Shown one piece after another: positions 17,277-60,045 of a stretch of DNA of 64,000 bases; positions within the stretch are counted from its first letter, which is position 1; every line of letters starts with the position of its first letter. The notes beneath the pieces are model-generated. The model did not search any database, was not told where the DNA came from, and saw nothing but the letters and a program-made list of their open reading frames with translations. Position numbers and translations under genes: made by a program. The DNA comes from Planctomycetota bacterium (GTDB lineage: Bacteria; Planctomycetota; Phycisphaerae; SM23-33): NCBI GenBank assembly GCA_030635145.1, contig DAOVZK010000003.1:38732-102731 (forward strand), written 5' to 3'.

Positions 17277-18962
17277 CTACGCATCGGGGAAAATCATCGA
17301 TTCGGCAAAGGCCATTTGAAATTGCATGTCACTGGAAAGCTCGATGTGCTGTGCGGTTTTGGCGATGCTTTCTGCCTTGCGCCTGGCAGCTGTCGACACG
17401 AGCACCCACTTGGCACCGTGCAGCGAAACGTTACCCACGTAGGTTATCCGCTGGGCGGGGATATCGCTTGGTATCAGCCCAATTCGCTGCGCATTTTGGC
17501 GGCGAATGAAACTTCCGAATCCGCCCGCGATCAAAACGCGGTTTATGTCGTCGGATGTCAGGCCTTGCTGCTTCAGCAGAATTTCGACACCGGCCTTAAG
17601 CGCACCGGTTGCCAGCTGCAATTCGCGAACGTCGCGCTGCGTGATCGTTACGTTCGGTGAATCGTCGCCGCTGCAGAGCACGAATTCTGTTTGGTTTTTG
17701 CTGTCTTTTCGCAGCCGTTGGCAAATGGCTGGCGGTGCGTCGCACAACTCGTCGCTGTTTGCGATTTTGCCCATCGAATCGATAATTTTCATTCGCAGCA
17801 TCTCGGCTGTGATGTCAACCAGCGCGCTGCCGCAAATTCCGATCGGCGACACCCCACCAATAACGCTGCACTTTATAGTTCCGTCGGGATCGATAACGAC
17901 TTTTTCGACTGCCCCGTTGGCCGCCCGCATTCCACACGAAATTCGCGCACCCTCAAACGCCGGACCAGCCGCCGCCGAGGCAGCAAGCAACTTTCCGTTT
18001 GCAGCTACGACGATTTCGCCGTTCGTGCCGATGTCGATCATTACCACCGGCCCGTCGGCGGAAAGCTCGGTGATGCTCGACGCGAGAATTCCCGAAACCG
18101 TATCACCACCGACAAACCCACCGATAACCGGCAAGACGTAAGCCCGCGCGGTTTCGGCGAGGGCAAATCCAAGCTCACCAGCCGGTACGTCAAGGGCTTC
18201 GTATCGCACCGGTTCAAACGGCAGCTGCGAAAGTTTCACCACGTCCCACCCGCAAAGCAAATGCTGCATTGTGGTATTGCCCGAAAAACTTATCCCGCGA
18301 ATTTCGCTTCTCTGCGCGCCGGTTTTTTCGCAAAGTTCGTCGATGAGCTTGTTCAATGCCTCCACGACAATATCGCGCAGCTCCTGAGCGTCAGCCGGTG
18401 ACGTGCAGGCCTTGCCGATCCGTGAAACAACATCGTCACCAAAAATCACCTGCGGATTAATCGCGGCGGCGATTCCCCGTTCTGTCCCGGAGGGCAGATC
18501 CAGCAGTTCGCCGACAAGCGTCGTAGTGCCGAGGTCGAAGGCGACAGCAAAATTTCGCGCACCGTCAACAATTTCGACCGGCAGCTCGTCGTGCGGTTCG
18601 TCGTCGACGGATTCTGCGATGGCGACGCTTTGGGTGAGAATTTGCAAGCGGTCGCTGAACAATGACGTTTCTGGAATCGCAATTACGGTGTCATGCAAAA
18701 CCCCGGCCTGGCATGCGAGTCGCCACCCGGCTGCGATTTCGTCGGCGTCGAGAACCTGCGATTCGGTTTCGTTGGGCTCGGGGGGATATGATACGAATCG
18801 TACGCGGCATTTTTCGCAAGTGCCCTGCCCACCGCACGGAGAATCAATCGCCAACCCGCAACGCCCCGCCGCCTCCAAAACCAACGTCCCCGGAAGCACC
18901 CACACCGACCGCCCCGTCGGTTCAAATGTAATACTGACCTGCTTGTTCTGCTCAACCATCAT
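17277..18962 (-). CDS. ASKHA-domain [2Fe-2S] protein, RACo/DUF4445 family (reductive activator of corrinoid proteins)
   Basis: N-terminal CGGQGTCEKC...RLACQ 2Fe-2S motif; AFDLGTTT, FGDDVVSRI, GGFVGGD, IDIGTNGE, AGPAFEG, GICGS, LIAGGFG. Confidence 0.92.
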   Translation of the reverse strand: MMVEQNKQVSITFEPTGRSVWVLPGTLVLEAAGRCGLAIDSPCGGQGTCEKCRVRFVSYPPEPNETESQVLDADEIAAGWRLACQAGVLHDTVIAIPETSLFSDRLQILTQSVAIAESVDDEPHDELPVEIVDGARNFAVAFDLGTTTLVGELLDLPSGTERGIAAAINPQVIFGDDVVSRIGKACTSPADAQELRDIVVEALNKLIDELCEKTGAQRSEIRGISFSGNTTMQHLLCGWDVVKLSQLPFEPVRYEALDVPAGELGFALAETARAYVLPVIGGFVGGDTVSGILASSITELSADGPVVMIDIGTNGEIVVAANGKLLAASAAAGPAFEGARISCGMRAANGAVEKVVIDPDGTIKCSVIGGVSPIGICGSALVDITAEMLRMKIIDSMGKIANSDELCDAPPAICQRLRKDSKNQTEFVLCSGDDSPNVTITQRDVRELQLATGALKAGVEILLKQQGLTSDDINRVLIAGGFGSFIRRQNAQRIGLIPSDIPAQRITYVGNVSLHGAKWVLVSTAARRKAESIAKTAQHIELSSDMQFQMAFAESMIFPDA

Positions 18963-27602: not shown

Positions 27603-28460
27603 ATGAAAGACTCTTTAGAACATCTACCGAAACCAAAACAGGCGGAACTTGAGCGTGTCGTTAAAAAAATATGCTCATACATCAACCCGGAGATGATAAT
27701 TCTCTACGGGTCATATGCACGCGGGGATTACAAGGAAGCAAAAGACATTGCTCCGGATTCCAAATCCGGCCACGCCTCCGATTACGATATTCTCGTTGTG
27801 ACGATGGGCGAATCGGTGGCCGAGGACGCGGGGTTATGGCATACGATCAATTCGGAATGCTGGAAGATGAAGCTATCCGCACATCCGAAAATTATCAGGG
27901 AAGATATCGAAAAACTTAACCGCCACTTCGAGCTGGGTTACTATTTTTACGTCGATATAAAAAGAGATGGCATAATCCTCTACGACACCGAAAAAATAAC
28001 CCTCAAAGACCGGCGCGAACTGACCCCGCAGGAAGACAAAAAACTTGTTCAGGAATACTATGACCATTGGTTTGAAGGGTCTCAAAGATTCTACAGGCAT
28101 TTTGAAATAGGTATGGAAGAAGAAGATTTTAAGGGTGCTGCCTTCCACCTGTTTATGACTGCCGAAGCCTGTTACAAATCTATCCTTCTTGTTTTTACAA
28201 AATACTGCCCGAAAGAGCATCATTTGGGATTGATCGGTGAGCTGATATTCCAATTTAACGTTGAGTTGAAAGACATTTTTCCCAATGACTCCCAAGAGCA
28301 TCAGCAGTTATTTGAATTACTTGATTACGCCTATATCGGGACAAGATACGACCCGAAATATACGGCTACCAAAGAGCAGTTGGAGTATTTGGGAAATCGA
28401 GTCCAGCGGCTGCGAGGTATCACTGAAAAGATGTGTACAGAAAAAATCGAAAACTTATAG
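27603..28460 (+). CDS. Fused minimal nucleotidyltransferase (MNT) + HEPN protein
   Basis: ILYGSYARG and SDYDILVV (Pol-beta-like NTase), then a helical HEPN-like half (AAFHLF...EACYK...EHHL...LDYAYIGTRY); AT-rich. Confidence 0.85.
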   Translation: MKDSLEHLPKPKQAELERVVKKICSYINPEMIILYGSYARGDYKEAKDIAPDSKSGHASDYDILVVTMGESVAEDAGLWHTINSECWKMKLSAHPKIIREDIEKLNRHFELGYYFYVDIKRDGIILYDTEKITLKDRRELTPQEDKKLVQEYYDHWFEGSQRFYRHFEIGMEEEDFKGAAFHLFMTAEACYKSILLVFTKYCPKEHHLGLIGELIFQFNVELKDIFPNDSQEHQQLFELLDYAYIGTRYDPKYTATKEQLEYLGNRVQRLRGITEKMCTEKIENL

Positions 28461-46832: not shown

Positions 46833-48284
46833 TTGCGCATTTTGTTAATACAACCTGAGTATCAAATTGTCGGATTCGGTTTCCGCCTCGCCGCGATGCC
46901 CGAACCGCTCCATCTCGAAATTTTGGCCGCGTCGATCCCCGATCACGAAGTCAAAATCCTGGACATGAGGATCGAGGCCAACTTACCCGGCGTGCTGGAA
47001 TCGTTTACCCCGGATCTGGTCGGTGTTACCGCCTTAACGACGGAAGTCTACACAGCCCGCGACGTTCTGATGGCCGTCAAAGGTTTTTCCAAGGACATCT
47101 TCACCGTTATCGGTGGACATCACGCCACGCTCATGCCGGAAGACTTTTTCATACCGCAGGCCGACGCCATTGCACTTGGTGAGGGCGAGGGCGTGTTCGC
47201 TGAACTGATCGACGCTGTCGAAAAAGAAAAACCGCTGGGGAATGTGCCGAACCTGATCTGGCAGTCCAAGGATCATCGATTCGTTCGAAATCCACGAGGG
47301 GTTGTTGATCTGAATATGGACGATATGCCGCTGCCCCGGCGCGACTTGGTCGAGCAATATCGCAAGGATTATTTTTTCCTGTTCGACAAGCCCGACTCCT
47401 CCGTAGCCACCGGCCGCGGATGCCCGTACCGCTGCAATTTCTGCAGCGTCCACGAATTTTACAACGGCAAGACCCGCCAAATGTGTGCCGAACGGGTGCT
47501 AAAAGAAATCAAAGATATCGACACGCATCACATAACGTTTGTCGATGACAATTTCCTCATGAACTATCGTCGCGAGGACAAAATTGCCGACATGGTCAAG
47601 GCTGAGGGCATCGAAAAAAGCTTCTCCATGGAATGCCGAACCGATTCAATCGTCCGGCATCCGGAACTGGTCGAAAAATGGGTCGACCGCGGGCTTTATG
47701 CCTCGCTGCTGGGGCTTGAAGGTGCCACCGACGCTGCACTCAAGGACGTCAACAAATCCAACTCCCTGGCCACCAACGACGAAGCCATCCGCATTCTCAA
47801 AGATAACGGCGTGATTATATGGGGCGCGTTTATTGTTGATCCGACGTGGGAGCTTGATGATTTCAAACGGCTGCGCGATTACGTAAACGAAAAGGAAATC
47901 ACGCATACGCAGTTTACGGTTTTGACACCGCTGGTCGGCACGGAACTGTATCGCCAGCGTTTCAACGAACTGCTGACGTACGACTACACCTGCTACGACA
48001 CACTGCATGCTGTTACGCCCACGAAATTACCGCGCGAAGAGTTCTACAAGCAGTTTGCCAACTTATATCAGCAGACCGACCTTGGGCCTTACTTCGATTT
48101 AGTCAGCGAGGGTAAACTGAGCGTCGATGATTGCCGTCGCGGCAAGAGAATGCTGGACGCCATGAGCCATTGGGAATACTATATCGACAAAGACCCCGTG
48201 CTTGGAACTGTGCGGGATCAGTCCGAGGCCTTACCAGGTGCAGAGTTGGCCGCCCACCGAGACAACAAAATTCGGCTGGCGTGA
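46833..48284 (+). CDS. Cobalamin-binding radical SAM protein (class B methyltransferase-like, HpnR-like N-terminus)
   Basis: EPLHLEILAA...VKILDMR, GGHHAT (B12-binding domain); RGCPYRCNFC; FVDDNF; TQFTVLTPLVGT. Confidence 0.9.
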   Translation: MRILLIQPEYQIVGFGFRLAAMPEPLHLEILAASIPDHEVKILDMRIEANLPGVLESFTPDLVGVTALTTEVYTARDVLMAVKGFSKDIFTVIGGHHATLMPEDFFIPQADAIALGEGEGVFAELIDAVEKEKPLGNVPNLIWQSKDHRFVRNPRGVVDLNMDDMPLPRRDLVEQYRKDYFFLFDKPDSSVATGRGCPYRCNFCSVHEFYNGKTRQMCAERVLKEIKDIDTHHITFVDDNFLMNYRREDKIADMVKAEGIEKSFSMECRTDSIVRHPELVEKWVDRGLYASLLGLEGATDAALKDVNKSNSLATNDEAIRILKDNGVIIWGAFIVDPTWELDDFKRLRDYVNEKEITHTQFTVLTPLVGTELYRQRFNELLTYDYTCYDTLHAVTPTKLPREEFYKQFANLYQQTDLGPYFDLVSEGKLSVDDCRRGKRMLDAMSHWEYYIDKDPVLGTVRDQSEALPGAELAAHRDNKIRLA

Positions 48285-49172: not shown

Positions 49173-49835
49173 CTAATCGAACGTGTTCGCCGACGGGCAG
49201 AGCTTTTTGGCAGACAGTGGACAGGCTTGGCAGTCGGGTTTGCGAGCGTTGCAATGCGATCGCCCGAGAAATACAATCAGGTGCCCGAAAAGTCCCCAAT
49301 CTTTTTGCGGAACAAGATCCATTAAGTCGATCTCGATTTTTTCTGGGGTGGTTTGCTTCGTCAGGCCCAGCCGTGCCGAAATTCTTTTAACGTGCGTGTC
49401 TACCACGACGCCTTCGTTTTTGCCGAACGCATTCGACAGCACGACGTTGGCGGTTTTGCGAGCCACGCCTGGTAGCAACAGCAGTTCGGCCATCGTCTGC
49501 GGAATCTTGCCTCCGAAGTCTTTGATGATCATCGCCGCTGCCCCGCGAATATTCTTGGACTTGTTGCGATAAAAACCCGTCGAACGGATATCCTGCTCGA
49601 GAGTTTCCTGCGGAACGCCCGCGTAATCTTCAGCTGTGCGATACTTGCGGAACAGATCCTGGGTAACAATGTTTACCCGCTTGTCGGTGCACTGGGCCGA
49701 CATAATCGTCGCCACCAGCAGCTCCAGCGGGTTGGAATGAACCAGTTCGCAGTGAGCGTTTGGGAAGTATGACTTCAGCGAGCGAAAAATTTTTCCCGTT
49801 CGCTGGCAGCGTGTGGTTTGTGATTCTCGCGGCAT
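49173..49835 (-). CDS. nth: Endonuclease III
   Basis: ELLVATIMSAQCTD, HhH LPGVARKTANVVL, VDTHV, 4Fe-4S CNARKPDCQACPL...C. Confidence 0.96.
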   Translation of the reverse strand: MPRESQTTRCQRTGKIFRSLKSYFPNAHCELVHSNPLELLVATIMSAQCTDKRVNIVTQDLFRKYRTAEDYAGVPQETLEQDIRSTGFYRNKSKNIRGAAAMIIKDFGGKIPQTMAELLLLPGVARKTANVVLSNAFGKNEGVVVDTHVKRISARLGLTKQTTPEKIEIDLMDLVPQKDWGLFGHLIVFLGRSHCNARKPDCQACPLSAKKLCPSANTFD

Positions 49836-49915: not shown

Positions 49916-51328
49916 TTAGTCGGTGGGTTGAGTTGTCGGTTGTTTTTGCTTCGCCGCCGGTTTCGTCGTCGGTTGAGTTGTCGTTTGGGAAACCGCCCGC
50001 TGGACTTTCTGCTCCATGGTTTCTCCGCTTTCGTAAGACTGCGAGTGGATTTCGACAGACAGCGGAGGTTTCCACGCCTCGGGTGGTAAAGCAAATTCTA
50101 CTTCCGGGAGGTCGAGTTTGCGAACGCGAACGGTGCTGAGTTCGGGGACCTCGGCGACGTATTTTTCGTCTGGCGACAGAGCCCATGTTCGTTCGGCAAA
50201 GGGTATGATATATTTTGCCTGGTAGTCGACGGCGTATGTTTTTCCGTCGTCGCGAGGAATCACCGCCAGCCATCCCGGGCGAAGCGGCCTGATGTCGCGA
50301 ATTTGGGCCTGGTACAGCGGAAGTCGCGTTTGATGTTTGGTTTCGAAGATGTCAACCTTCCACGGATCGAGTTGGATGATGCAGGTCCCCAACGCCATAG
50401 TCCAACCGAGGACGTAGTTCCCGTCCTTCGTCCAGCCATGCACGTAAAATTGGTCGACACCGAAATATTTTCCGATTTCGTCGCTAAAATCTTTGGTCTT
50501 GTAGGTTTCGCGATCTACAAGAATCGCTCCGCCTTGTCCCGCCTGATCCCAAGGCCAACCGAACGCGCAAAATACCTTCGAGCTGTCGGGGCTCCACGCC
50601 ACGCCCTTGCTCTTAGCCGACGTCTGCCGCAGCGACGGTGAGATTTCGCCCGTCTTGACATCCAGAATTCGCATGTCCAGCTGCCCGACAATAAGCATCG
50701 CCTCGCGATCCGGCGCCCAATACTCCTCAAACGGTTCGATATCGTTGCTGGTAATTGACGAGAACAGCTCCACTCGTTCAGGCAGCGGCTTGGTTACAAG
50801 TTGGCGATAAATTTTCTTTACTATGCTGCGGGAACCATCGGTTGTTGATTGCAGCTGTACTGAATAAACGAGAGTGTCGGGGCCTGTCCAGTGGCAGGTG
50901 TCGATAAGCTCTTTTTCGCTGCGTTTTTTTTCGGGCGTCACCCGCCAATAATCTCCGCTGGCGATGTCGACGACGTCGATTCGCTTTTCACGAACCAGAA
51001 GTATCGACCGCCCATTAAGCGAAAATTCGATATGCTTGAGTTTCGCACGTGAAAGGTAGCTCGGTGCCTTGACGACTTTCTTGACACGTACAACTTTGGA
51101 TTTTTCCGGGAAGTCGACGCTGCTAAGACCGACGGACTCCGTTCGTTCCATCGCAAAATATCCCTCGTCCATGGTTTGCACGAGTTTTTGCTTTTCCCAG
51201 ATGTAGGCCACCATCGTTCCGTCGTGCGAAAACGCGACTTCCGTGGCGTCGTAGACGTAGCGAACGCATCCGCCAAACGGCAAGGCAATGATACCCAGCA
51301 GAAACAAAACTGTAAGACGGTATGTCAT
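49916..51328 (-). CDS. Lipoprotein with TolB/WD40-like beta-propeller repeats
   Basis: Lipobox FGGC; AFSHDG, FSLNG, WAPD, AWSPDS, LSPD repeats; C-terminal TTTQP/TTQP tail. Confidence 0.75.
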   Translation of the reverse strand: MTYRLTVLFLLGIIALPFGGCVRYVYDATEVAFSHDGTMVAYIWEKQKLVQTMDEGYFAMERTESVGLSSVDFPEKSKVVRVKKVVKAPSYLSRAKLKHIEFSLNGRSILLVREKRIDVVDIASGDYWRVTPEKKRSEKELIDTCHWTGPDTLVYSVQLQSTTDGSRSIVKKIYRQLVTKPLPERVELFSSITSNDIEPFEEYWAPDREAMLIVGQLDMRILDVKTGEISPSLRQTSAKSKGVAWSPDSSKVFCAFGWPWDQAGQGGAILVDRETYKTKDFSDEIGKYFGVDQFYVHGWTKDGNYVLGWTMALGTCIIQLDPWKVDIFETKHQTRLPLYQAQIRDIRPLRPGWLAVIPRDDGKTYAVDYQAKYIIPFAERTWALSPDEKYVAEVPELSTVRVRKLDLPEVEFALPPEAWKPPLSVEIHSQSYESGETMEQKVQRAVSQTTTQPTTKPAAKQKQPTTQPTD

Positions 51329-51333
51329 ATTTC

Positions 51334-54300
51334 TCATTTATTTTTCCCGGCGAGATACTTGTTGATTATGCTAGCAGTGCGTCGGCCTGAATCTATAGCA
51401 GTCGCCACGTACGCCTGCGAAGCTATCAGGTCGCCCGCAGCGAAAACTCCGGGTCTGCTCGTGGCGTCATTTTCGTCAACTTCGAGCGAACCGTTCTCCG
51501 TCAAAACCAGCCCAAGCTGTTCGGCGACCTTTTTATCAACTTTCGGCTCAAAACCCATCGCAAGTACAACAATATCTGCAGGAATATCGAATTCGCTGCC
51601 ATCGATTTCCTCGCACACCTGCTTAGCTCCGTTGGAATTGTAGCTTACGCGCACCGCTCGCAGCGACCGAACCTGCCCGCCGTCCCCGGACAACACTGTC
51701 GTTTTGACGCTCCAATGCTTCTCTACGCCCTCGGGTGTGGCGGAGTTGGCGACTTTGTATTGCGGCAGGATTTCCAGCTGATGAATCTCGCGGGCACCTT
51801 GTTTTAAGGCGGCCTCGACGCAGTCTTCGCCCGTCAGGCCTCCGCCGATAATCGCCACAGTCTTACCGCTTGCGTTGATGCTCGGAATCCCATCGCCCGC
51901 GAGAATTTGCGACCGCAGATAATCCGAGGCTGTCACAATTCCGCCAAGGTCGCACCCGGGAACGTTCAGCTGGCGCGATAACTGACGGCCGGTGGTAAGG
52001 CAGGTCGCGTCAAACTCGGCGGCCAGCTCGGCAGCGTTGATGTCAACACCGACTTGCGACCCGCATTTAAATTCTATGCCCTCGCCGCGCAGCTGTTCCA
52101 ATCGCCGGTCGATCAGCGTCTTGTCTAACCGCTCAGCTGGAATTGCGTAACGAAGCAGCCCGCCGGGTTCATCATCTTTTTCGAATACCGTTACGGCGTG
52201 ACCCTTGCGAGCGAGTTGTTGCGCCGCAGCCAGCCCGCTCGGGCCAGCACCAACGATGGCAATCTTTTGGCCGGTGGAAGTTTTCGGGGCTTGCGGAGTG
52301 ATCCATCCATTTTCAAACGCGATGTCGATGATCTGCTTTTCGGTCTGCATGATTCCCGACGGGAAATCGTGCAGGGCATTGTGGCAGGTGTCCTGGCAGA
52401 ACGCGGGGCAGATCAGGGCAGTGAATTCGGGGAAATTGTTGCTTTCGTGCAGCACGGTGGCGGCTTGTTTCCACTTACCGCTCTCGGCGAGTTCCATCCA
52501 GCGAGGGATGTCGGACTTCAGCGGGCACCCGCGGTCGCTGCACGAGGGCGATTTGCACGACATGCACATTGGCGAACCAAGTCGCGCGACACCCTGAGCG
52601 TATTGCTCAGGCGAGGCGTAGGCAAACTCGGCGATGTGTTTTTCGTACCGCGCGCGATAGCTTAGTTCGCGCCGGTTCCATCTTTTCAACAACGGACGAA
52701 TCCACGCCATGCGTTTCAGCAGTTCCAGCTGATGTTTCTGCAGCGACAAACGAAGCAAAACTTCGCGCCCGGCGAACGACAGTTTGCGCTTCCACAGATA
52801 TCGATACGAAATCCGGTCGCCGTTGGCTGGGTTGACGTTGTACTTTTTGCGGTCGTGGGCAAATTTCTCAGGTGCCGTCCCAAGCTCGGCCTCGAATACG
52901 CTATCCTTGATTAACATCGCACTGGCGAGGTTGTGGATGACGGCTTTGGTGGCGGCGTAGTCGTGCTTGGAGGTGTCCTTGGCGTAAATTTCGGTGACCT
53001 GATCCAAATACCGTTTGGCGTACGGGATTCTGCCCCATCGCATGCAATCGTAGCTGCGAACGACGACGTCGCGCTTGAGCTGCTCGTCGAGGTTGGGCAT
53101 GTTTTCGATGCTGGTGGTGACCATTTCGCGCAGCTGTTCGGGGAGCTTGCTGCCCTTGCCGTATCGCCGCGTCGCCCAACGAATTTTTGAGTCCAATGTT
53201 TCTTTCCACCCATTTGGTTCGGGTGCACCCAGAAAAAGATCCTGCTGCTCGACGAGTTTTCGCCCCATGTTGAAGGCGTAGAGATTTTTCTTGAAGTCGA
53301 CGCGGATGGCGTCTTTGATCGACCACGCCATCGAGTGCATCGAGATCGGAATCAGGCCCTGCTGGAAGGCGTAACCCATCATCATGATGTTCGCGTAGAT
53401 TTTGCTCCCGAGATACTTTTCGCAAATTCGCGAAATGTCGCGGGCGAGGAAATATTCTTTGCGGGTGTGATGGCGGATGAACTCGACGAGCTGATCGGTA
53501 TCGAAATCATCCCAGCCCATGAGAACTGTGCTGGTTGCAACTTTTGCGGTGTTGATGACGGCGGCGGTTTGTTGCGACGAGGCAGCCCGGGTTCGGCCTT
53601 TCGGGTCAAGCACGCGGGCGGCTTCGAGAACGTCGACGCCCAGTAGCAGGTCGGCCTTGCCGTAGGGCATGATGCCGGTGACGGGTTGCTTGGCGATGTT
53701 AAACACAACCTGCGACGTTACACCACCGTTGCGGATGGCCATGCCCTTCTTGTCGAAAAACGTCACATCGTAGCCTTCGTAATGCCCCGCCCGCACGAGA
53801 ATGCTCGTCGCCAGGCCGATACCCATCCCCCCAACACCCGTCAGGCAGCACCACCACGTGTCACTCGTGGGACGTTTGCGAGGTTCGGGAATTTTGTCAA
53901 GCCCCAGCTCGGGAACCAGCGACTTCGGGGGACGTTTGCGATAGACGGTCAGTTTTTCGAACGAGTCGCAGGCACCCACTCTTTCGCAGGCACCGTCGAC
54001 GACGCACCAGCTCATGGCGGTGTCCACTTTCGGGCCGTAATCGGTTTGCACGTGTTGCAATCCCGGGCACCCGGTAATTTCGGTACACGAAAGACAGAAG
54101 CAGCAGATGTCCTGATTGACATTCATGTACTGTTTTTTGGGCAGGAAGTTTTTTTCCTTAACGAGTGCACGTTCGTCGCGGCGGCGCCGGCGGATACGGG
54201 TAATTCCGCATTCCTTGTCGGAGATCACAACCTTCACTCCGTCGGCGAGGAACATGTGTTCGAGCAGTTCCGTGTAGGCCTTGCGGTCTTCGGGGTTGGT

Positions 54301-56070
54301 CGAAACGATGTTGATGTCGGTTCGGCTGGCCATACCGCGAAGCACGTCCTGAATATCCTGCCGCGGAGTCACGTTCCCCAGCAAATCGTATTCCACACCA
54401 GGTGTCGGTTGATGCCCCGTCATGCCGGTGGTGCTGTTGTTGAGAATTATAAACGTAATGTCCTGCTTGAGCTTGATCGCCTGCGAAATCGCAATCGCAC
54501 CGGAGTGGAAAAACGTCGAGTCGCCCATGAAGACGACTTCCTTGTTGGTTGTAAACGGATCGGTGCCCGACCCGGTTCCGCCACCAAGCCCCATGCCGGA
54601 ATAGTCGTGCATGAGATCGTTTGTCGGTGGAAACATCAGCAGCGTGTAGCAGCCAGTGTCGCCGTGGAACATCAGGTCGACGGGTTCGCTGTTGTGGGCC
54701 TTCTTCATGTATCGCGGATCCATGAAGCGGCGTTTGATATCGAGGCAGAGCGAGGCCGAGTCGCGGTGCGGGCATCCGGGGCAGAAAACCGGCAGCCGCA
54801 GGGGTATATTCACGTCGCCGAGGTCAACGTTTTGCGTAGACTGCAGCATTTGCAGCTCTTGCGAGATGCTGTCCGATGCGCGAGTCGAGACGCTGCTATC
54901 CACGCCGAATTTCTGAATCAACGGCCCGACGTGAAGCATAATAATCGACGGATCCAAACCGAGGTTCGCCGGGATGCCTTTGAGGTCGCCGGGGAACTGC
55001 TTCCCGTAGACTTCGGTGTTGGCAAATGCGCCGTTGGGGTCGGCTTGGCGCTGTCGCATTACGATTTGGGCTACTTGTTCTTCGAGGAATCCGCGGCGTT
55101 CTTCGATGACGACGATTTTTTCGCATTGCTGCGCGAGTTCTTCGATAAGCTGCGGGTCGGCTGGGTAGCTCATGCCGAATTTAAGGATCGGGAATTCGCC
55201 CAGTACGCCCAGCTCGAACAAACCCTGCACAAGATAGTCGTGCCCAAGCCCGGCGCTGATGAATCCCAACGGCCGTTTGCCGTTTTTCGCGGGATGATCG
55301 ATGCGGTTCATGCCACACTCGCGGGCGACCTGCATTGCGATTGCGTGACGTTTCGGGAACGACGCTTCGCGCCACCAGGTTCGTGGTGGTAATAGGACGC
55401 GTTTGTCGACATCGATATTTTTGGTCACGAGGTCGAACTTGTTCAACACGCCGACTTCGGGATAGTGGTTGGGGGAGCATTGCACCGTTCCCCCGCCGTC
55501 GGCGAGGTTGGTCGTCAACACGAAACCGGCGATCAGTTCGCTTCTGCTGGAAATTTTAAATGATATATCGACGAAGTCTTTTACTTCCTGCGCGTTGGAC
55601 GGTTCGATGACGGGAATGTACAGATGCTTCGACAAAAAGCGGCTGTCGGATGGCACCTGAGTCGAGTCGCTCCATGGATCGTCGCCGTAGACGACGATGG
55701 CTCCGCCTTGCTTATGTGCCCCTGCCAGATTCGCCAGCGCCAGCGCATCGGCAGCTACGTGCAGCCCGACGCTTTTCATGGTTATCATCACGCGCACGGG
55801 CAACGTTTGCGACCCGTTAAGCATCGCCGCCGACAGGGCTTCGTTGTTGTTGATAACAGCCCGGATGCCCTTTTCGGCCAGCAGTTCCTTAAGCGCCGTC
55901 AGGGAATCGAAATAACCCGCAATCGGGCTGCCGGGATATCCGCCCAGCAGGTGCACTCCGCCTTCAGACTCCAAGGCGCCCTTCACCAGCAACTCATTGC
56001 CGGTAAAGATCTCAGTGCCGCTTTCCGCTAAAAATCTGCGTTCAGTTTTCATCAGCGATATTGTACGCAA
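51334..56070 (-). CDS. Fused indolepyruvate:ferredoxin oxidoreductase-type enzyme (IorA-IorB-DUF6537-like) + GltD-like Fe-S flavoprotein
   Basis: GYPGSP, FCPGCPHR, GDTGCY, GDSTFFHSG (TPP), CCFCLSC...GCP ferredoxin, GVGGMG (gamma/IorB); then CMSCKSPSC...GCP, ICPAFC...C, GAGPSGL (FAD), IIGGGLTGEDC, GVFAAGD. Confidence 0.9.
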   Translation of the reverse strand: MRTISLMKTERRFLAESGTEIFTGNELLVKGALESEGGVHLLGGYPGSPIAGYFDSLTALKELLAEKGIRAVINNNEALSAAMLNGSQTLPVRVMITMKSVGLHVAADALALANLAGAHKQGGAIVVYGDDPWSDSTQVPSDSRFLSKHLYIPVIEPSNAQEVKDFVDISFKISSRSELIAGFVLTTNLADGGGTVQCSPNHYPEVGVLNKFDLVTKNIDVDKRVLLPPRTWWREASFPKRHAIAMQVARECGMNRIDHPAKNGKRPLGFISAGLGHDYLVQGLFELGVLGEFPILKFGMSYPADPQLIEELAQQCEKIVVIEERRGFLEEQVAQIVMRQRQADPNGAFANTEVYGKQFPGDLKGIPANLGLDPSIIMLHVGPLIQKFGVDSSVSTRASDSISQELQMLQSTQNVDLGDVNIPLRLPVFCPGCPHRDSASLCLDIKRRFMDPRYMKKAHNSEPVDLMFHGDTGCYTLLMFPPTNDLMHDYSGMGLGGGTGSGTDPFTTNKEVVFMGDSTFFHSGAIAISQAIKLKQDITFIILNNSTTGMTGHQPTPGVEYDLLGNVTPRQDIQDVLRGMASRTDINIVSTNPEDRKAYTELLEHMFLADGVKVVISDKECGITRIRRRRRDERALVKEKNFLPKKQYMNVNQDICCFCLSCTEITGCPGLQHVQTDYGPKVDTAMSWCVVDGACERVGACDSFEKLTVYRKRPPKSLVPELGLDKIPEPRKRPTSDTWWCCLTGVGGMGIGLATSILVRAGHYEGYDVTFFDKKGMAIRNGGVTSQVVFNIAKQPVTGIMPYGKADLLLGVDVLEAARVLDPKGRTRAASSQQTAAVINTAKVATSTVLMGWDDFDTDQLVEFIRHHTRKEYFLARDISRICEKYLGSKIYANIMMMGYAFQQGLIPISMHSMAWSIKDAIRVDFKKNLYAFNMGRKLVEQQDLFLGAPEPNGWKETLDSKIRWATRRYGKGSKLPEQLREMVTTSIENMPNLDEQLKRDVVVRSYDCMRWGRIPYAKRYLDQVTEIYAKDTSKHDYAATKAVIHNLASAMLIKDSVFEAELGTAPEKFAHDRKKYNVNPANGDRISYRYLWKRKLSFAGREVLLRLSLQKHQLELLKRMAWIRPLLKRWNRRELSYRARYEKHIAEFAYASPEQYAQGVARLGSPMCMSCKSPSCSDRGCPLKSDIPRWMELAESGKWKQAATVLHESNNFPEFTALICPAFCQDTCHNALHDFPSGIMQTEKQIIDIAFENGWITPQAPKTSTGQKIAIVGAGPSGLAAAQQLARKGHAVTVFEKDDEPGGLLRYAIPAERLDKTLIDRRLEQLRGEGIEFKCGSQVGVDINAAELAAEFDATCLTTGRQLSRQLNVPGCDLGGIVTASDYLRSQILAGDGIPSINASGKTVAIIGGGLTGEDCVEAALKQGAREIHQLEILPQYKVANSATPEGVEKHWSVKTTVLSGDGGQVRSLRAVRVSYNSNGAKQVCEEIDGSEFDIPADIVVLAMGFEPKVDKKVAEQLGLVLTENGSLEVDENDATSRPGVFAAGDLIASQAYVATAIDSGRRTASIINKYLAGKNK

Positions 56071-56121: not shown

Positions 56122-56409
56122 TTATCCCCTTGAGAGGCAAACCGCGCACCAAGCTGCTATCATACTCAACAAGGCTATTACTGCTGCTACAACCGCGACA
56201 ACACTCGAACTGTGGGCGCTATTAGTCCGGATAACATCCCGAATTCGATCATGCAATTCTTCATTTGTAGCTGGTCTGTAACCATTGGCATTTCCCTTAG
56301 ATGTCTGTGTACATGCCCCAGCATCTTTTGCTAATTTTGTCAATTCCTCAAATTGCTCACTACTTTCTTTACTTGAAATACGCTTCAATTTTTTTCCAAT
56401 ACTATTCAT
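56122..56409 (-). CDS. AT-rich hypothetical protein with C-terminal TM helix
   Basis: 95-aa ORF whose start overlaps the upstream stop by 4 nt; low GC. Confidence 0.5.
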   Translation of the reverse strand: MNSIGKKLKRISSKESSEQFEELTKLAKDAGACTQTSKGNANGYRPATNEELHDRIRDVIRTNSAHSSSVVAVVAAVIALLSMIAAWCAVCLSRG

Positions 56410-58395: not shown

Positions 58396-60045
58396 TCATC
58401 TTTCTTCGATTATTTCCGTCAGGAGATATTGATGCTTGTATTGTTCTGATCGGCCTTTTTTGCGGCGGATATTTTCGTGTTCGATTTTCGCAAGCGTCCC
58501 AGCCGCCAGCAGCACGACCTGGATCGGGCCTAACCGGTCGGAATGGCATTTCGAGGCGTATTCAATATTCAAACCCCGCAGGGCAGCGTCGAATTCGTCG
58601 CGAATTTGCTCGGCCTGCTGCGCGGAGTCGGCCTCGAGTCGCAATTCGTAATGCGGCGGCGCGGCGAACCGGCCCTGAACAACAAACCGCTCGATACCTA
58701 AGCCCAACTTGCTGCGAACCTGCGACATGGCCTGCACCACCTGATGCTCGGTCAACTTCTCGCCCGTAATGCTCGACGTATGCAACCCGCGCGACAAAAA
58801 TTCAAACACCGGGCTTTGTCCGCACATGCCAGTTACGCGAATTCGGTCGTCGAGATTGTAGCGGAACAACCCGGCTTGGTTGCTGACGACCAAAAAGTAC
58901 TCAGCCCCAACCTGCAGTTCGTGCGCCCGCAAAATTGGGGGACTCGCCTCGCCGTAATTTTCGGCTGGGATGAACTCGAGGAAGCTCGACGTAATTTCCG
59001 CCACGCCGGCGGCGGTGTTTTTCTCCAGCGGTACACTAAACCGACCTTCGCTGGCCAACAATCCGATATCATATACCGGCAGGTCGCCGTAAAGCTCTCG
59101 CAGCTGGTGGAAATACAATTTCAGCGTGCCACCCGTCCAGTTCGTCAGAAACGACAAATTCCAGAAATGCCGCGGGAGCAATTTGCCATCGGCAGCGATC
59201 CCGGCTTCAAGCTGTTTGGCGAGCTTCGGATTCGGCTTGAACTTTTTCGCTTTGGTTTTTTCCACGATTCCCGATTCAATTTCACCGGGCGGATTGAACG
59301 TTCCGTCGGTGATATCGCGGATAAGCTGCTCGCTGAACCGCTGGCCGGTCTCGATGAGCTTAATCGTGCTCGACGGATTCGCCGTTGTGATAAACGCCAC
59401 GTCTTTGTCGATGCTGTATCGCAGCAGCGAGTAGAATCGCGTGTCGGGGTTGTGTAGTTCAGTTATCCACGACGGGGTGCAGTACATGCGGCGGACGATT
59501 TTCTTTTGCGTTTGGGCGAGCAGTCCGCTGATGGCACCGCAGGGCAGACCGGTGGGGCTGGTTTCTTCGTGCATGGACGACGAAATTTGCACGATCGGGC
59601 GCAGCCATGCGTCGGGCTGATTTTGCAGAACGTTGATGCCGAACAGGTTCCATCCGCGGCGGATAGTGTCGAGAAATTGTTGAGTAACGGGAATGTATTT
59701 CGGCTCGCCGGTGGTTCCGCTGGTCATGGAGAACATCAGCACGGGCTGATCTGCTGGTAGCAATGCGGTGGTTTCGCCCTGCAGCACGCGGTCGACGTAA
59801 GGGCGTAGCTGCGAATAGTCGCGAACCGGCACGGCCTCGGTGAAATCTTTGTAGTTTGCGATTTTCGCGAATCCATGGTCGCGGCCGAAAGCTGTTTCGC
59901 GATGCGCGGCCAACAACTGCTGCAAAAAATCGTCCTGCGTTTGCTTCGTGTGTTCGTGGGCGCGCATGAAGCTTTTCAGCTCGCGTCGCGCGCTCCATGC
60001 ACCGACTCTTGCGATCGGGCGGAGGATGGTTTGGCGAAGGCTCAT
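58396..60045 (-). CDS. GH3-family (auxin-responsive-type) acyl-adenylating amido synthetase
   Basis: MTSGTTGEPKYIP, LLASEG, NQAGLFRYNLDD, GEKLTE. Confidence 0.9.
   Translation of the reverse strand: MSLRQTILRPIARVGAWSARRELKSFMRAHEHTKQTQDDFLQQLLAAHRETAFGRDHGFAKIANYKDFTEAVPVRDYSQLRPYVDRVLQGETTALLPADQPVLMFSMTSGTTGEPKYIPVTQQFLDTIRRGWNLFGINVLQNQPDAWLRPIVQISSSMHEETSPTGLPCGAISGLLAQTQKKIVRRMYCTPSWITELHNPDTRFYSLLRYSIDKDVAFITTANPSSTIKLIETGQRFSEQLIRDITDGTFNPPGEIESGIVEKTKAKKFKPNPKLAKQLEAGIAADGKLLPRHFWNLSFLTNWTGGTLKLYFHQLRELYGDLPVYDIGLLASEGRFSVPLEKNTAAGVAEITSSFLEFIPAENYGEASPPILRAHELQVGAEYFLVVSNQAGLFRYNLDDRIRVTGMCGQSPVFEFLSRGLHTSSITGEKLTEHQVVQAMSQVRSKLGLGIERFVVQGRFAAPPHYELRLEADSAQQAEQIRDEFDAALRGLNIEYASKCHSDRLGPIQVVLLAAGTLAKIEHENIRRKKGRSEQYKHQYLLTEIIEER

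Follow-up and report, generated by a model that had tools for sequence, protein, structure and literature searches.

Introduction

The combination of a 2-oxoacid:ferredoxin oxidoreductase (OFOR) and an NAD(P)-reducing flavoprotein on one polypeptide is known from Euglena and Cryptosporidium, whose pyruvate:NADP+ oxidoreductases (PNOs) consist of a core of the pyruvate:ferredoxin oxidoreductase (PFOR) type and a cytochrome-P450-reductase-like module with flavin mononucleotide (FMN) and flavin adenine dinucleotide (FAD). Here we analyse a gene (51334..56052, minus strand) in a 64-kb stretch of DNA from a Planctomycetota bacterium (contig DAOVZK010000003.1; "the window" is this whole stretch of 64,000 nucleotides) that shares this layout but is made of unrelated parts, i.e. 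a core of the indolepyruvate ferredoxin oxidoreductase (IOR) type followed by a GltD-type module with Fe-S clusters and FAD. Flavodoxin or FNR domains, as in the PNO-type module, were not found in the fusion protein by Pfam. We assign a probability of about 65% to the reading that the protein is a self-contained, non-bifurcating 2-oxoacid:NAD+ oxidoreductase that would make acyl-coenzyme A (acyl-CoA) and whose flavoprotein part would be a plain adaptor.

OFORs that reduce pyridine nucleotides have also been described as multi-subunit enzymes. A subunit of the 2-oxoglutarate:NADP+ oxidoreductase of Azoarcus evansii was grouped among GltD/NfnB homologues in a phylogeny (PMC10134865), and a passage of PMC5109826 cites the phenylglyoxylate:NAD+ oxidoreductase PadEFGHI as an NAD-reducing OFOR. 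As predicted for the fusion protein, these Azoarcus enzymes are OFOR-type enzymes with thiamine pyrophosphate (TPP) and Fe-S clusters that reduce pyridine nucleotide; compared by description, they are of the multi-subunit Kor/VOR type, occur in Betaproteobacteria and use other substrates, whereas the fusion protein is one IOR-type chain. The 2-oxoglutarate:NADP+ oxidoreductase is said to have been described by Ebenau-Jehle et al. 2003 and PadEFGHI by Hirsch et al. 1998, and both enzymes reportedly contain FAD, with the flavin on a dedicated subunit.

Counterparts are known for each half of the chain. Fused IorA-IorB proteins (PRK13030/PRK13029, ~1170 amino acids (aa)) resemble residues 1-1156 of the fusion protein in their order through the C-terminal DUF6537; the fusion protein, however, scores 408 bits against a PRK13030 cutoff of 816, represents a divergent branch of the Planctomycetes-Verrucomicrobia-Chlamydiae (PVC) group and adds a GltD module of 420 residues. 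Its unfused PVC-group relatives (45-51% identity) have an identical arrangement of Cys/Asp ligands and presumably pass their electrons to ferredoxin. On the side of the flavoprotein, GltD of the TIGR01317 type (7MFM; 2VDC/6S6S from Azospirillum brasilense) shares the Fer4_20, FAD and NAD(P) domains with the fusion protein, and Bacillus subtilis GltB (7MFM) also the pattern of seven Cys residues; beta subunits of glutamate synthase (GOGAT) are the best matches of the module in both sequence and fold. In contrast to free GltD, the module is not a separate subunit, has no GltB partner nearby, stays below the TIGR01317 cutoff, lacks ~20 residues after strand β2 of the NAD(P) domain and has an acidic EILP motif in place of the basic residues of NADPH binders. 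The large subunits NfnB and SudA (4YLF, 5JCA) are similar to the module in fold and cofactors (FAD and two [4Fe-4S] clusters), but reach only ~266 bits on it versus 410 bits for GOGAT beta, and the fusion protein has no NfnA partner fused to it or conserved nearby. GltD-like modules are NAD(P) entry points also in dihydropyrimidine dehydrogenase, in Nfn/Stn complexes and in formate dehydrogenases.

Our searches found no paper, PDB entry or dedicated Pfam or NCBIfam model for this fusion architecture, and nothing in the literature on DUF6537, Phycisphaerae IOR or fused IorAB. The novelty claimed in an earlier note on this DNA holds in so far as we found no characterised enzyme with the exact architecture, but it was overstated with regard to the underlying logic, which is known from the A. 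evansii enzyme, from PadEFGHI and from a second class of IorA::GltD fusions (see below).

Architecture and cofactor sites

A homologue search was carried out in a collection of 5.8 billion proteins and the best 120 matches were considered. All 120 are full-length proteins (1546-1632 aa) with 56-64% identity and the same Pfam set, and all conservation counts given below were taken over these homologues.

The ORF had been listed as 51334..56070 on the minus strand (1578 aa, starting with TTG at 56070) and had been described as uninterrupted, and indeed we found no internal stop and no frame change in its translation. As the alignment of 19 homologues begins at a methionine within the motif MK(T/V)(E/D)xRF, which reads MKTERRF in the window protein, the likely start is the ATG at 56052, resulting in 1572 codons with the stop at 51334-51336. 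A scan for promoters and terminators gave no signal above shuffled background. The motifs quoted in the earlier note, i.e. CMSCKSPSCSDRGCP, ICPAFCQDTC, GAGPSG and GGGLTG, are all present in the translation.

The chain is composed, in this order, of a Pyr domain, domain II, a TPP domain, an Fe-S insert, a gamma/CoA domain, DUF6537, Fer4_20 and FAD/NAD(P) domains. This agrees with the domain reading of the earlier note, which Pfam and NCBIfam matches confirmed and whose sub-region coordinates were right to within a few codons. IorA, IorB and DUF6537 follow each other as in PRK13030, which covers residues 35-1061 (E 8e-122), and in PRK13029, which matches with 307 bits (cutoff 952).

Domain I (residues ~10-200; 55453..56025, this and all further domains being on the minus strand) corresponds to the Pyr half of the TPP site. 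Its motifs GGYPGSP (37-43) and N70-E71 are invariant in two homologue alignments and in the 120 homologues, and E71 presumably acts in this half of the site. The domain has a weak profile match to 1YD7, the alpha subunit of a 2-keto acid:ferredoxin oxidoreductase. The transketolase-C-like domain II (residues ~255-400; 54853..55290), with a weak Transketolase_C match at 296-345, falls within the match to IOR_alpha (TIGR03336, residues 15-695). The TPP (PP) domain, which also harbours putative ligands of the TPP-proximal [4Fe-4S] cluster, spans 54193..54810 and is recognised by Pfam as TPP_enzyme_C (PF02775, residues 465-601). It is followed by the ferredoxin-like insert (53953..54123) with the motifs C650-x2-C653-x2-C656-x5-C662-P and C683-x2-D686-x2-C689-x5-C695. 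The gamma or IorB-like CoA domain (residues ~735-935; 53248..53850) contains the glycine-rich loop GVGGMGIG, matches PF01558 (POR) at 741-931 with 53 bits (cutoff 27.4) and is covered by the IorB models of NCBIfam at 737-937. The subsequent region (residues ~940-1155; 52588..53235) comprises the DUF6537 helices, a long beta-hairpin and a variable linker; the Pfam match to DUF6537 (PF20169, 998-1156) is borderline (27.3 bits, cutoff 27). An AlphaFold2 (AF2) model of the DUF6537 region shows a helical bundle with a long beta-hairpin at a mean confidence (pLDDT) of 81, and no fold match in the PDB was found for it at E<=0.001.

The GltD half starts with the Fe-S domain Fer4_20 (52303..52587; PF14691, residues 1156-1249), containing C1163-x2-C1166-x4-C1171-x4-C1176-P and PEFT1211...C1215-x3-C1219-x3-C1223. 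The FAD and NAD(P) Rossmann domains (51337..52290; Pyr_redox_2, PF07992, residues 1263-1553) carry the FAD motif GAGPSG (residues 1268-1273; 52234-52251) and the nucleotide site GGGLTGEDC...HQLE1427ILP (residues 1403-1430; 51763-51846). TIGR01317, the model of the glutamate synthase small subunit, covers residues 1154-1570 (E 2.5e-118, 396 bits, cutoff 447.7).

The designation "IOR type" holds for fold and domain order, but the label does not prove the substrate, as the fusion protein reaches the equivalog cutoff of neither IOR model (TIGR03336, 293 bits versus 650.9; TIGR03334, IOR_beta, 60.6 bits versus 205.8). No solved structure related to the OFOR half was found by phmmer; a family-profile search against structures gave faint matches to OFOR subunits, the best being 1YD7 (E 7e-6).

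The cofactor motifs of both halves are complete and are kept in 120 of 120 homologues, which implies that selection acts on either half to preserve its cofactors. The TPP motif G510-D511...N539 (GD(G/S)-x(~27)-N) is invariant, and so are C424 and C427 (FCPGCPHRD), C468 (GDTGCY) and C615 (KECGIT), which we infer to be the ligands of the TPP-proximal [4Fe-4S] cluster because their pattern and spacing match those of the proximal cluster in PFOR. E71 of the Pyr domain is invariant as well. The ferredoxin-like insert is predicted to hold two clusters and contains seven invariant Cys residues. Position 686, which takes the place of the second Cys in the second ferredoxin motif (C-x2-D-x2-C-x5-C), is occupied by Asp in 117 homologues and by Glu in the remaining 3. 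The Asp is equally kept in the unfused relatives (loci L025-L080), i.e. it is a trait of the whole OFOR branch, and it suggests that one insert cluster is either of the [3Fe-4S] type or a [4Fe-4S] cluster with an Asp ligand. All seven Cys residues of Fer4_20 (C1163, C1166, C1171, C1176 with the following Pro, C1215, C1219 and C1223) and both GxGxxG nucleotide motifs (FAD and NAD(P)) are invariant. The PEIC of Azospirillum GltD is replaced by PEFT in the GltD part, which is no defect, since the solved and functional B. subtilis GltB (7MFM) shows the same seven-Cys pattern. By region, mean identity amounts to 63-71% in the OFOR domains, with the gamma domain being most conserved (71%). It drops to 56% in DUF6537 and to 32% in the linker (1086-1155), and the GltD half reaches 50%.

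Spread and origin of the fusion

The earlier note had named an artefact at the junction as a reason for which the fusion might fall. The junction is genuine: all of the best 120 matches extend over it, and they come from NCBI, ENA, JGI and Logan, i.e. from independent assemblies. An assembly or frameshift artefact that joined two genes was therefore ruled out and has a negligible probability, as at least 120 clusters and at least 24 species genomes of unrelated projects contain this ORF in unbroken form, the linker is alignable over 19 homologues and the reading frame shows neither stop nor frame change. Those matches that bear a name are annotated either as "FAD-dependent oxidoreductase" or as "indolepyruvate ferredoxin oxidoreductase" and belong to metagenome-assembled genomes (MAGs) of Phycisphaerae/Planctomycetota.

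In contigs representing one genome per species, the full fusion was found at at least 24 loci, all from Planctomycetota. Clustering at 50% identity resulted in one full-length representative plus fragments, so the fusion family is compact and constitutes one clade. A neighbour-joining tree built on the OFOR part places all 25 fused sequences in a single monophyletic group nested among unfused relatives from Planctomycetota, and its sister group consists of such proteins of ~1200 aa. The unfused relatives (Verrucomicrobiota, Phycisphaerae, Tepidisphaerales and Methylacidiphilales) end after DUF6537, and no separate GltD gene lies adjacent to theirs. Thus, the fusion arose once, within Planctomycetota, by the joining of a GltD module to the C-terminus, and the module may be regarded as a lineage-specific added electron outlet, since the genes of the unfused relatives lack a GltD neighbour.

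Type and coenzyme of the flavoprotein module

The earlier note had termed the flavoprotein half "GltD/NfnB-like", and only the first part of this name stood. In a sequence search against solved structures the module scores 410 bits with 7MFM and 340 bits with 6S6S/2VDC, but 265-274 bits with NfnB/NfnI/NfnABC chains (4YLF and 5JCA, 266-268 bits), and in NCBIfam TIGR01317 (396 bits) clearly exceeds TIGR01316 (238 bits). An AF2 model of the GltD half superposes on GOGAT beta as well as on Nfn large subunits. By sequence as well as by profile, the module is nearer to true small (beta) subunits of glutamate synthase than to NfnB.

The same comparison bears on the suggestion of the earlier note that the enzyme might bifurcate electrons. 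In such a case, the FAD of the GltD module would bifurcate or confurcate electrons like that of NfnB and thereby link NAD(P)(H), the OFOR clusters and a third carrier, e.g. ferredoxin. NfnB, SudA and GltD have one fold, and an external ferredoxin could still dock at the ferredoxin-like domain of the OFOR. The module is, however, clearly nearer to the non-bifurcating GOGAT beta subunits; an NfnA-like FAD/[2Fe-2S] subunit is neither fused nor present in the 64-kb window nor conserved beside the at least 24 fused loci; only a single Fe-S path would lead away from the flavin; and the oxidative reaction has no thermodynamic need of bifurcation. We consider bifurcation very unlikely, and the suggestion is not supported. 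Slightly less likely still is the far-reaching version in which the protein would be the first 2-oxoacid oxidoreductase to bifurcate electrons on a single chain, where either NAD(P)H together with a high-potential acceptor would drive the reductive carboxylation of acyl-CoA or the electrons of the 2-oxoacid would be split between NAD+ and ferredoxin. NfnB-type bifurcation was therefore rejected as leading model, given the GOGAT-beta-like scores and the lack of a conserved NfnA partner.

The similarity to GOGAT beta might also be taken literally, i.e. the module might still be a glutamate synthase small subunit that docks on GltB, so that 2-oxoacid oxidation would feed glutamate synthesis. The TIGR01317 score just below the cutoff and ~50% identity to B. 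subtilis GltB over ~285 residues would agree with this idea. Yet no gltB-like (Glu_synthase/GXGXG) gene was found in the window or conserved near the at least 24 fused genes, and the NAD(P) site, which would be needless in such a scheme, is fully conserved; the idea is purely speculative and we regard it as highly improbable.

As to the coenzyme, relatives that bind NADPH have basic residues after strand β2, i.e. LYRRDRKNMP in A. brasilense GltD, LYRRTREEMP in 9BOV and QFGKHPK in B. subtilis GltB. At this place the window family has HQ(L/F)-E1427-I-L-P, with Glu in 119 of the 120 homologues, and the basic motifs LYRR(D/T)R and GKHPK are absent from the nucleotide site of the fusion protein. 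An acidic residue at the end of β2 is a classic determinant for NAD. Moreover, a fungal-type single-chain GOGAT of 2126 aa has NFELLP at the equivalent position, and this class of GOGAT is NADH-specific. As Glu ends β2, the basic NADPH motifs are missing and the NFELLP of the NADH-type GOGAT is alike, we predict with moderate confidence that the fusion protein prefers NAD+ over NADP+.

Proposed reaction

The domain reading and the complete cofactor motifs support the proposal of the earlier note that the protein is a self-contained 2-oxoacid:NAD(P)+ oxidoreductase with the logic of Euglena PNO. In the mechanism that we propose, the enzyme, probably a homodimer like other OFORs, would oxidatively decarboxylate a 2-oxoacid at the TPP site, with the acyl group being handed over to CoA at the gamma domain, and would release two electrons that travel one by one along five Fe-S clusters, i.e. 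from the TPP-proximal [4Fe-4S] cluster via the two clusters of the insert and the two Fer4_20 clusters of the GltD module to FAD, which would finally reduce NAD(P)+, with NAD+ as the most likely acceptor. Overall, this would amount to 2-oxoacid + CoA + NAD+ -> acyl-CoA + CO2 + NADH, with no need of free ferredoxin, rendering the protein a functional equivalent of a 2-oxoacid dehydrogenase complex based on OFOR chemistry. The flavoprotein would serve as plain adaptor between NAD(P) and Fe-S clusters as in glutamate synthase, rather than provide a bifurcating flavin. GOGAT beta subunits, the closest solved kin of the module, shuttle electrons between NADPH/FAD and Fe-S clusters, and the oxidation of a 2-oxoacid (~-500 mV) by NAD+ (-320 mV) is strongly downhill (~180 mV). 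Electron path, reaction direction and NAD+ preference are predictions, and an aryl or branched-chain 2-oxoacid derived from amino acids is our guess for the substrate class, based on the similarity to the IOR family.

The reaction might also run in reverse. In this case the FAD of the GltD module would accept electrons from NAD(P)H, which would drive the process, and acyl-CoA would be reductively carboxylated to a 2-oxoacid for amino-acid biosynthesis. OFORs are reversible, with anabolic IOR/VOR enzymes being known in methanogens, the GltD module of glutamate synthase conducts electrons from NAD(P)H to Fe-S clusters, and no catabolic partner genes were found near the fusion gene. On the other hand, this direction is uphill by ~180 mV, corresponding to ~+35 kJ/mol if no coupling device is involved, and such a device is neither fused nor conserved nearby; in addition, the predicted NADH-type site suits catabolism better than an NADPH-driven biosynthesis. 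We thus regard a reductive 2-oxoacid synthase as unlikely and favour the oxidation of 2-oxoacids with NAD+.

Several points weigh against this oxidative scheme. The IOR models as well as TIGR01317 all remain under their curated NCBIfam cutoffs, and homology therefore does not allow the substrate or the coenzyme to be assigned. The contact between the clusters of the OFOR and those of the GltD module is assumed, since the AF2 model of residues 620-1572 (953 residues, shallow alignment) is too poor for inter-domain geometry, with a predicted TM-score (pTM) of 0.51 and the gamma domain unmodelled. Finally, a gene for NAD kinase, the enzyme that makes NADP+, is located directly upstream on the same strand at 12 fused loci (e.g. 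L004:7069-7914 and L008:7017-7898) and 3 unfused loci (L079, L064, L032), but not in the window. This arrangement could hint at a link to NADP or could be mere inherited gene order; it may also point to a pyridine-nucleotide link that is older than the fusion.

A second IorA::GltD fusion class

Among the matches listed, ~45 clusters represent a second class of fusion proteins (~1000-1190 aa; P0250, P0260, P0275, P0277 and P0287, among others). They consist of a classical IorA (TIGR03336, with P0287 above the cutoff) into which a GltD-like module of the PRK12771 type is placed before the C-terminal ferredoxin domain, and they occur in MAGs of Dehalococcoidales, Bradymonadaceae, SAR324 and Polyangiaceae. 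This class shares with the window fusion the IOR alpha part and the Fer4_20/FAD/NAD(P) module, but is without DUF6537, and IorB is usually encoded by a separate adjacent gene, except for one version of 1384 aa that has IorB fused, too. At one locus (L081:6001-9962) the gene is flanked by an overlapping iorB gene downstream and by a Liv-type amino-acid ABC transporter upstream. The nucleotide motifs of the second class are basic and NADPH-like (YRRxK-type; FYRRTK or LESR). We found no published paper or solved structure for this class. It is of independent origin, i.e. the IorA-GltD solution evolved at least twice, which strengthens the functional reading of the fusion protein and at the same time lowers the claim to uniqueness.

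Gene neighbourhood

In the 64-kb window the fusion gene has no recognisable pathway context, its neighbours being unrelated housekeeping genes, and the only neighbours conserved in relatives are the upstream NAD kinase gene and a downstream endonuclease-III-like gene. The window contains a gene of the latter kind (HhH-GPD; 49173-49835, minus strand), whose kin lie directly downstream of the fusion gene at 15 of 24 listed loci (among L004-L024) with 58-68% identity; this adjacency probably represents inherited gene order, not a functional link. In the window, an ORF of 473 aa (49916-51337, minus strand) stands in between, and its ATG start and the stop of the fusion gene share the sequence ATGA. 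Its product is lipoprotein-like, with a hydrophobic N-terminus and a Cys, and has no Pfam family; the ORF is absent in relatives, where the endonuclease-III-like gene follows directly.

Just upstream of the fusion gene, an ORF of 95 aa (56122-56409, minus strand), located in AT-rich sequence (GC 0.44), encodes a protein with a C-terminal hydrophobic tail and no family match. Two genes upstream of the fusion gene lies a gene of the GH3 family (acyl-acid amido synthetase-like; 58396-60045, minus strand), which is not kept beside the fusion in relatives. Farther away, the window encodes a RACo-like protein with Fer2 and RACo domains (17277-18962, minus strand), of the type that reductively activates corrinoid proteins, and a B12-binding radical SAM enzyme (46833-48284, plus strand); these two genes hint at an anaerobic, corrinoid-using lifestyle. 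A protein of 285 aa with a C-terminal HEPN domain is encoded at 27603-28460 (plus strand).

Implications

What is new about the fusion protein is its particular build, i.e. an IOR-type single chain combined with DUF6537 and a GOGAT-type GltD module, whereas the logic is already established. If our reading is correct, these Phycisphaerae would gain NADH instead of reduced ferredoxin from the oxidation of 2-oxoacids, and the redox and energy balance of metabolic reconstructions, in which the gene is now labelled "indolepyruvate ferredoxin oxidoreductase" or "FAD-dependent oxidoreductase", would change. An enzyme that converts 2-oxoacids to acyl-CoA and NADH and that requires no carrier could also serve pathway engineering. 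Moreover, the fusion gives a Rosetta-stone hint on the destination of the electrons in the poorly understood family of fused IORs. Taken together with the second class of IorA::GltD fusions, it makes enzymes of the IOR type that are linked to NAD(P) look like a recurrent but unstudied solution.

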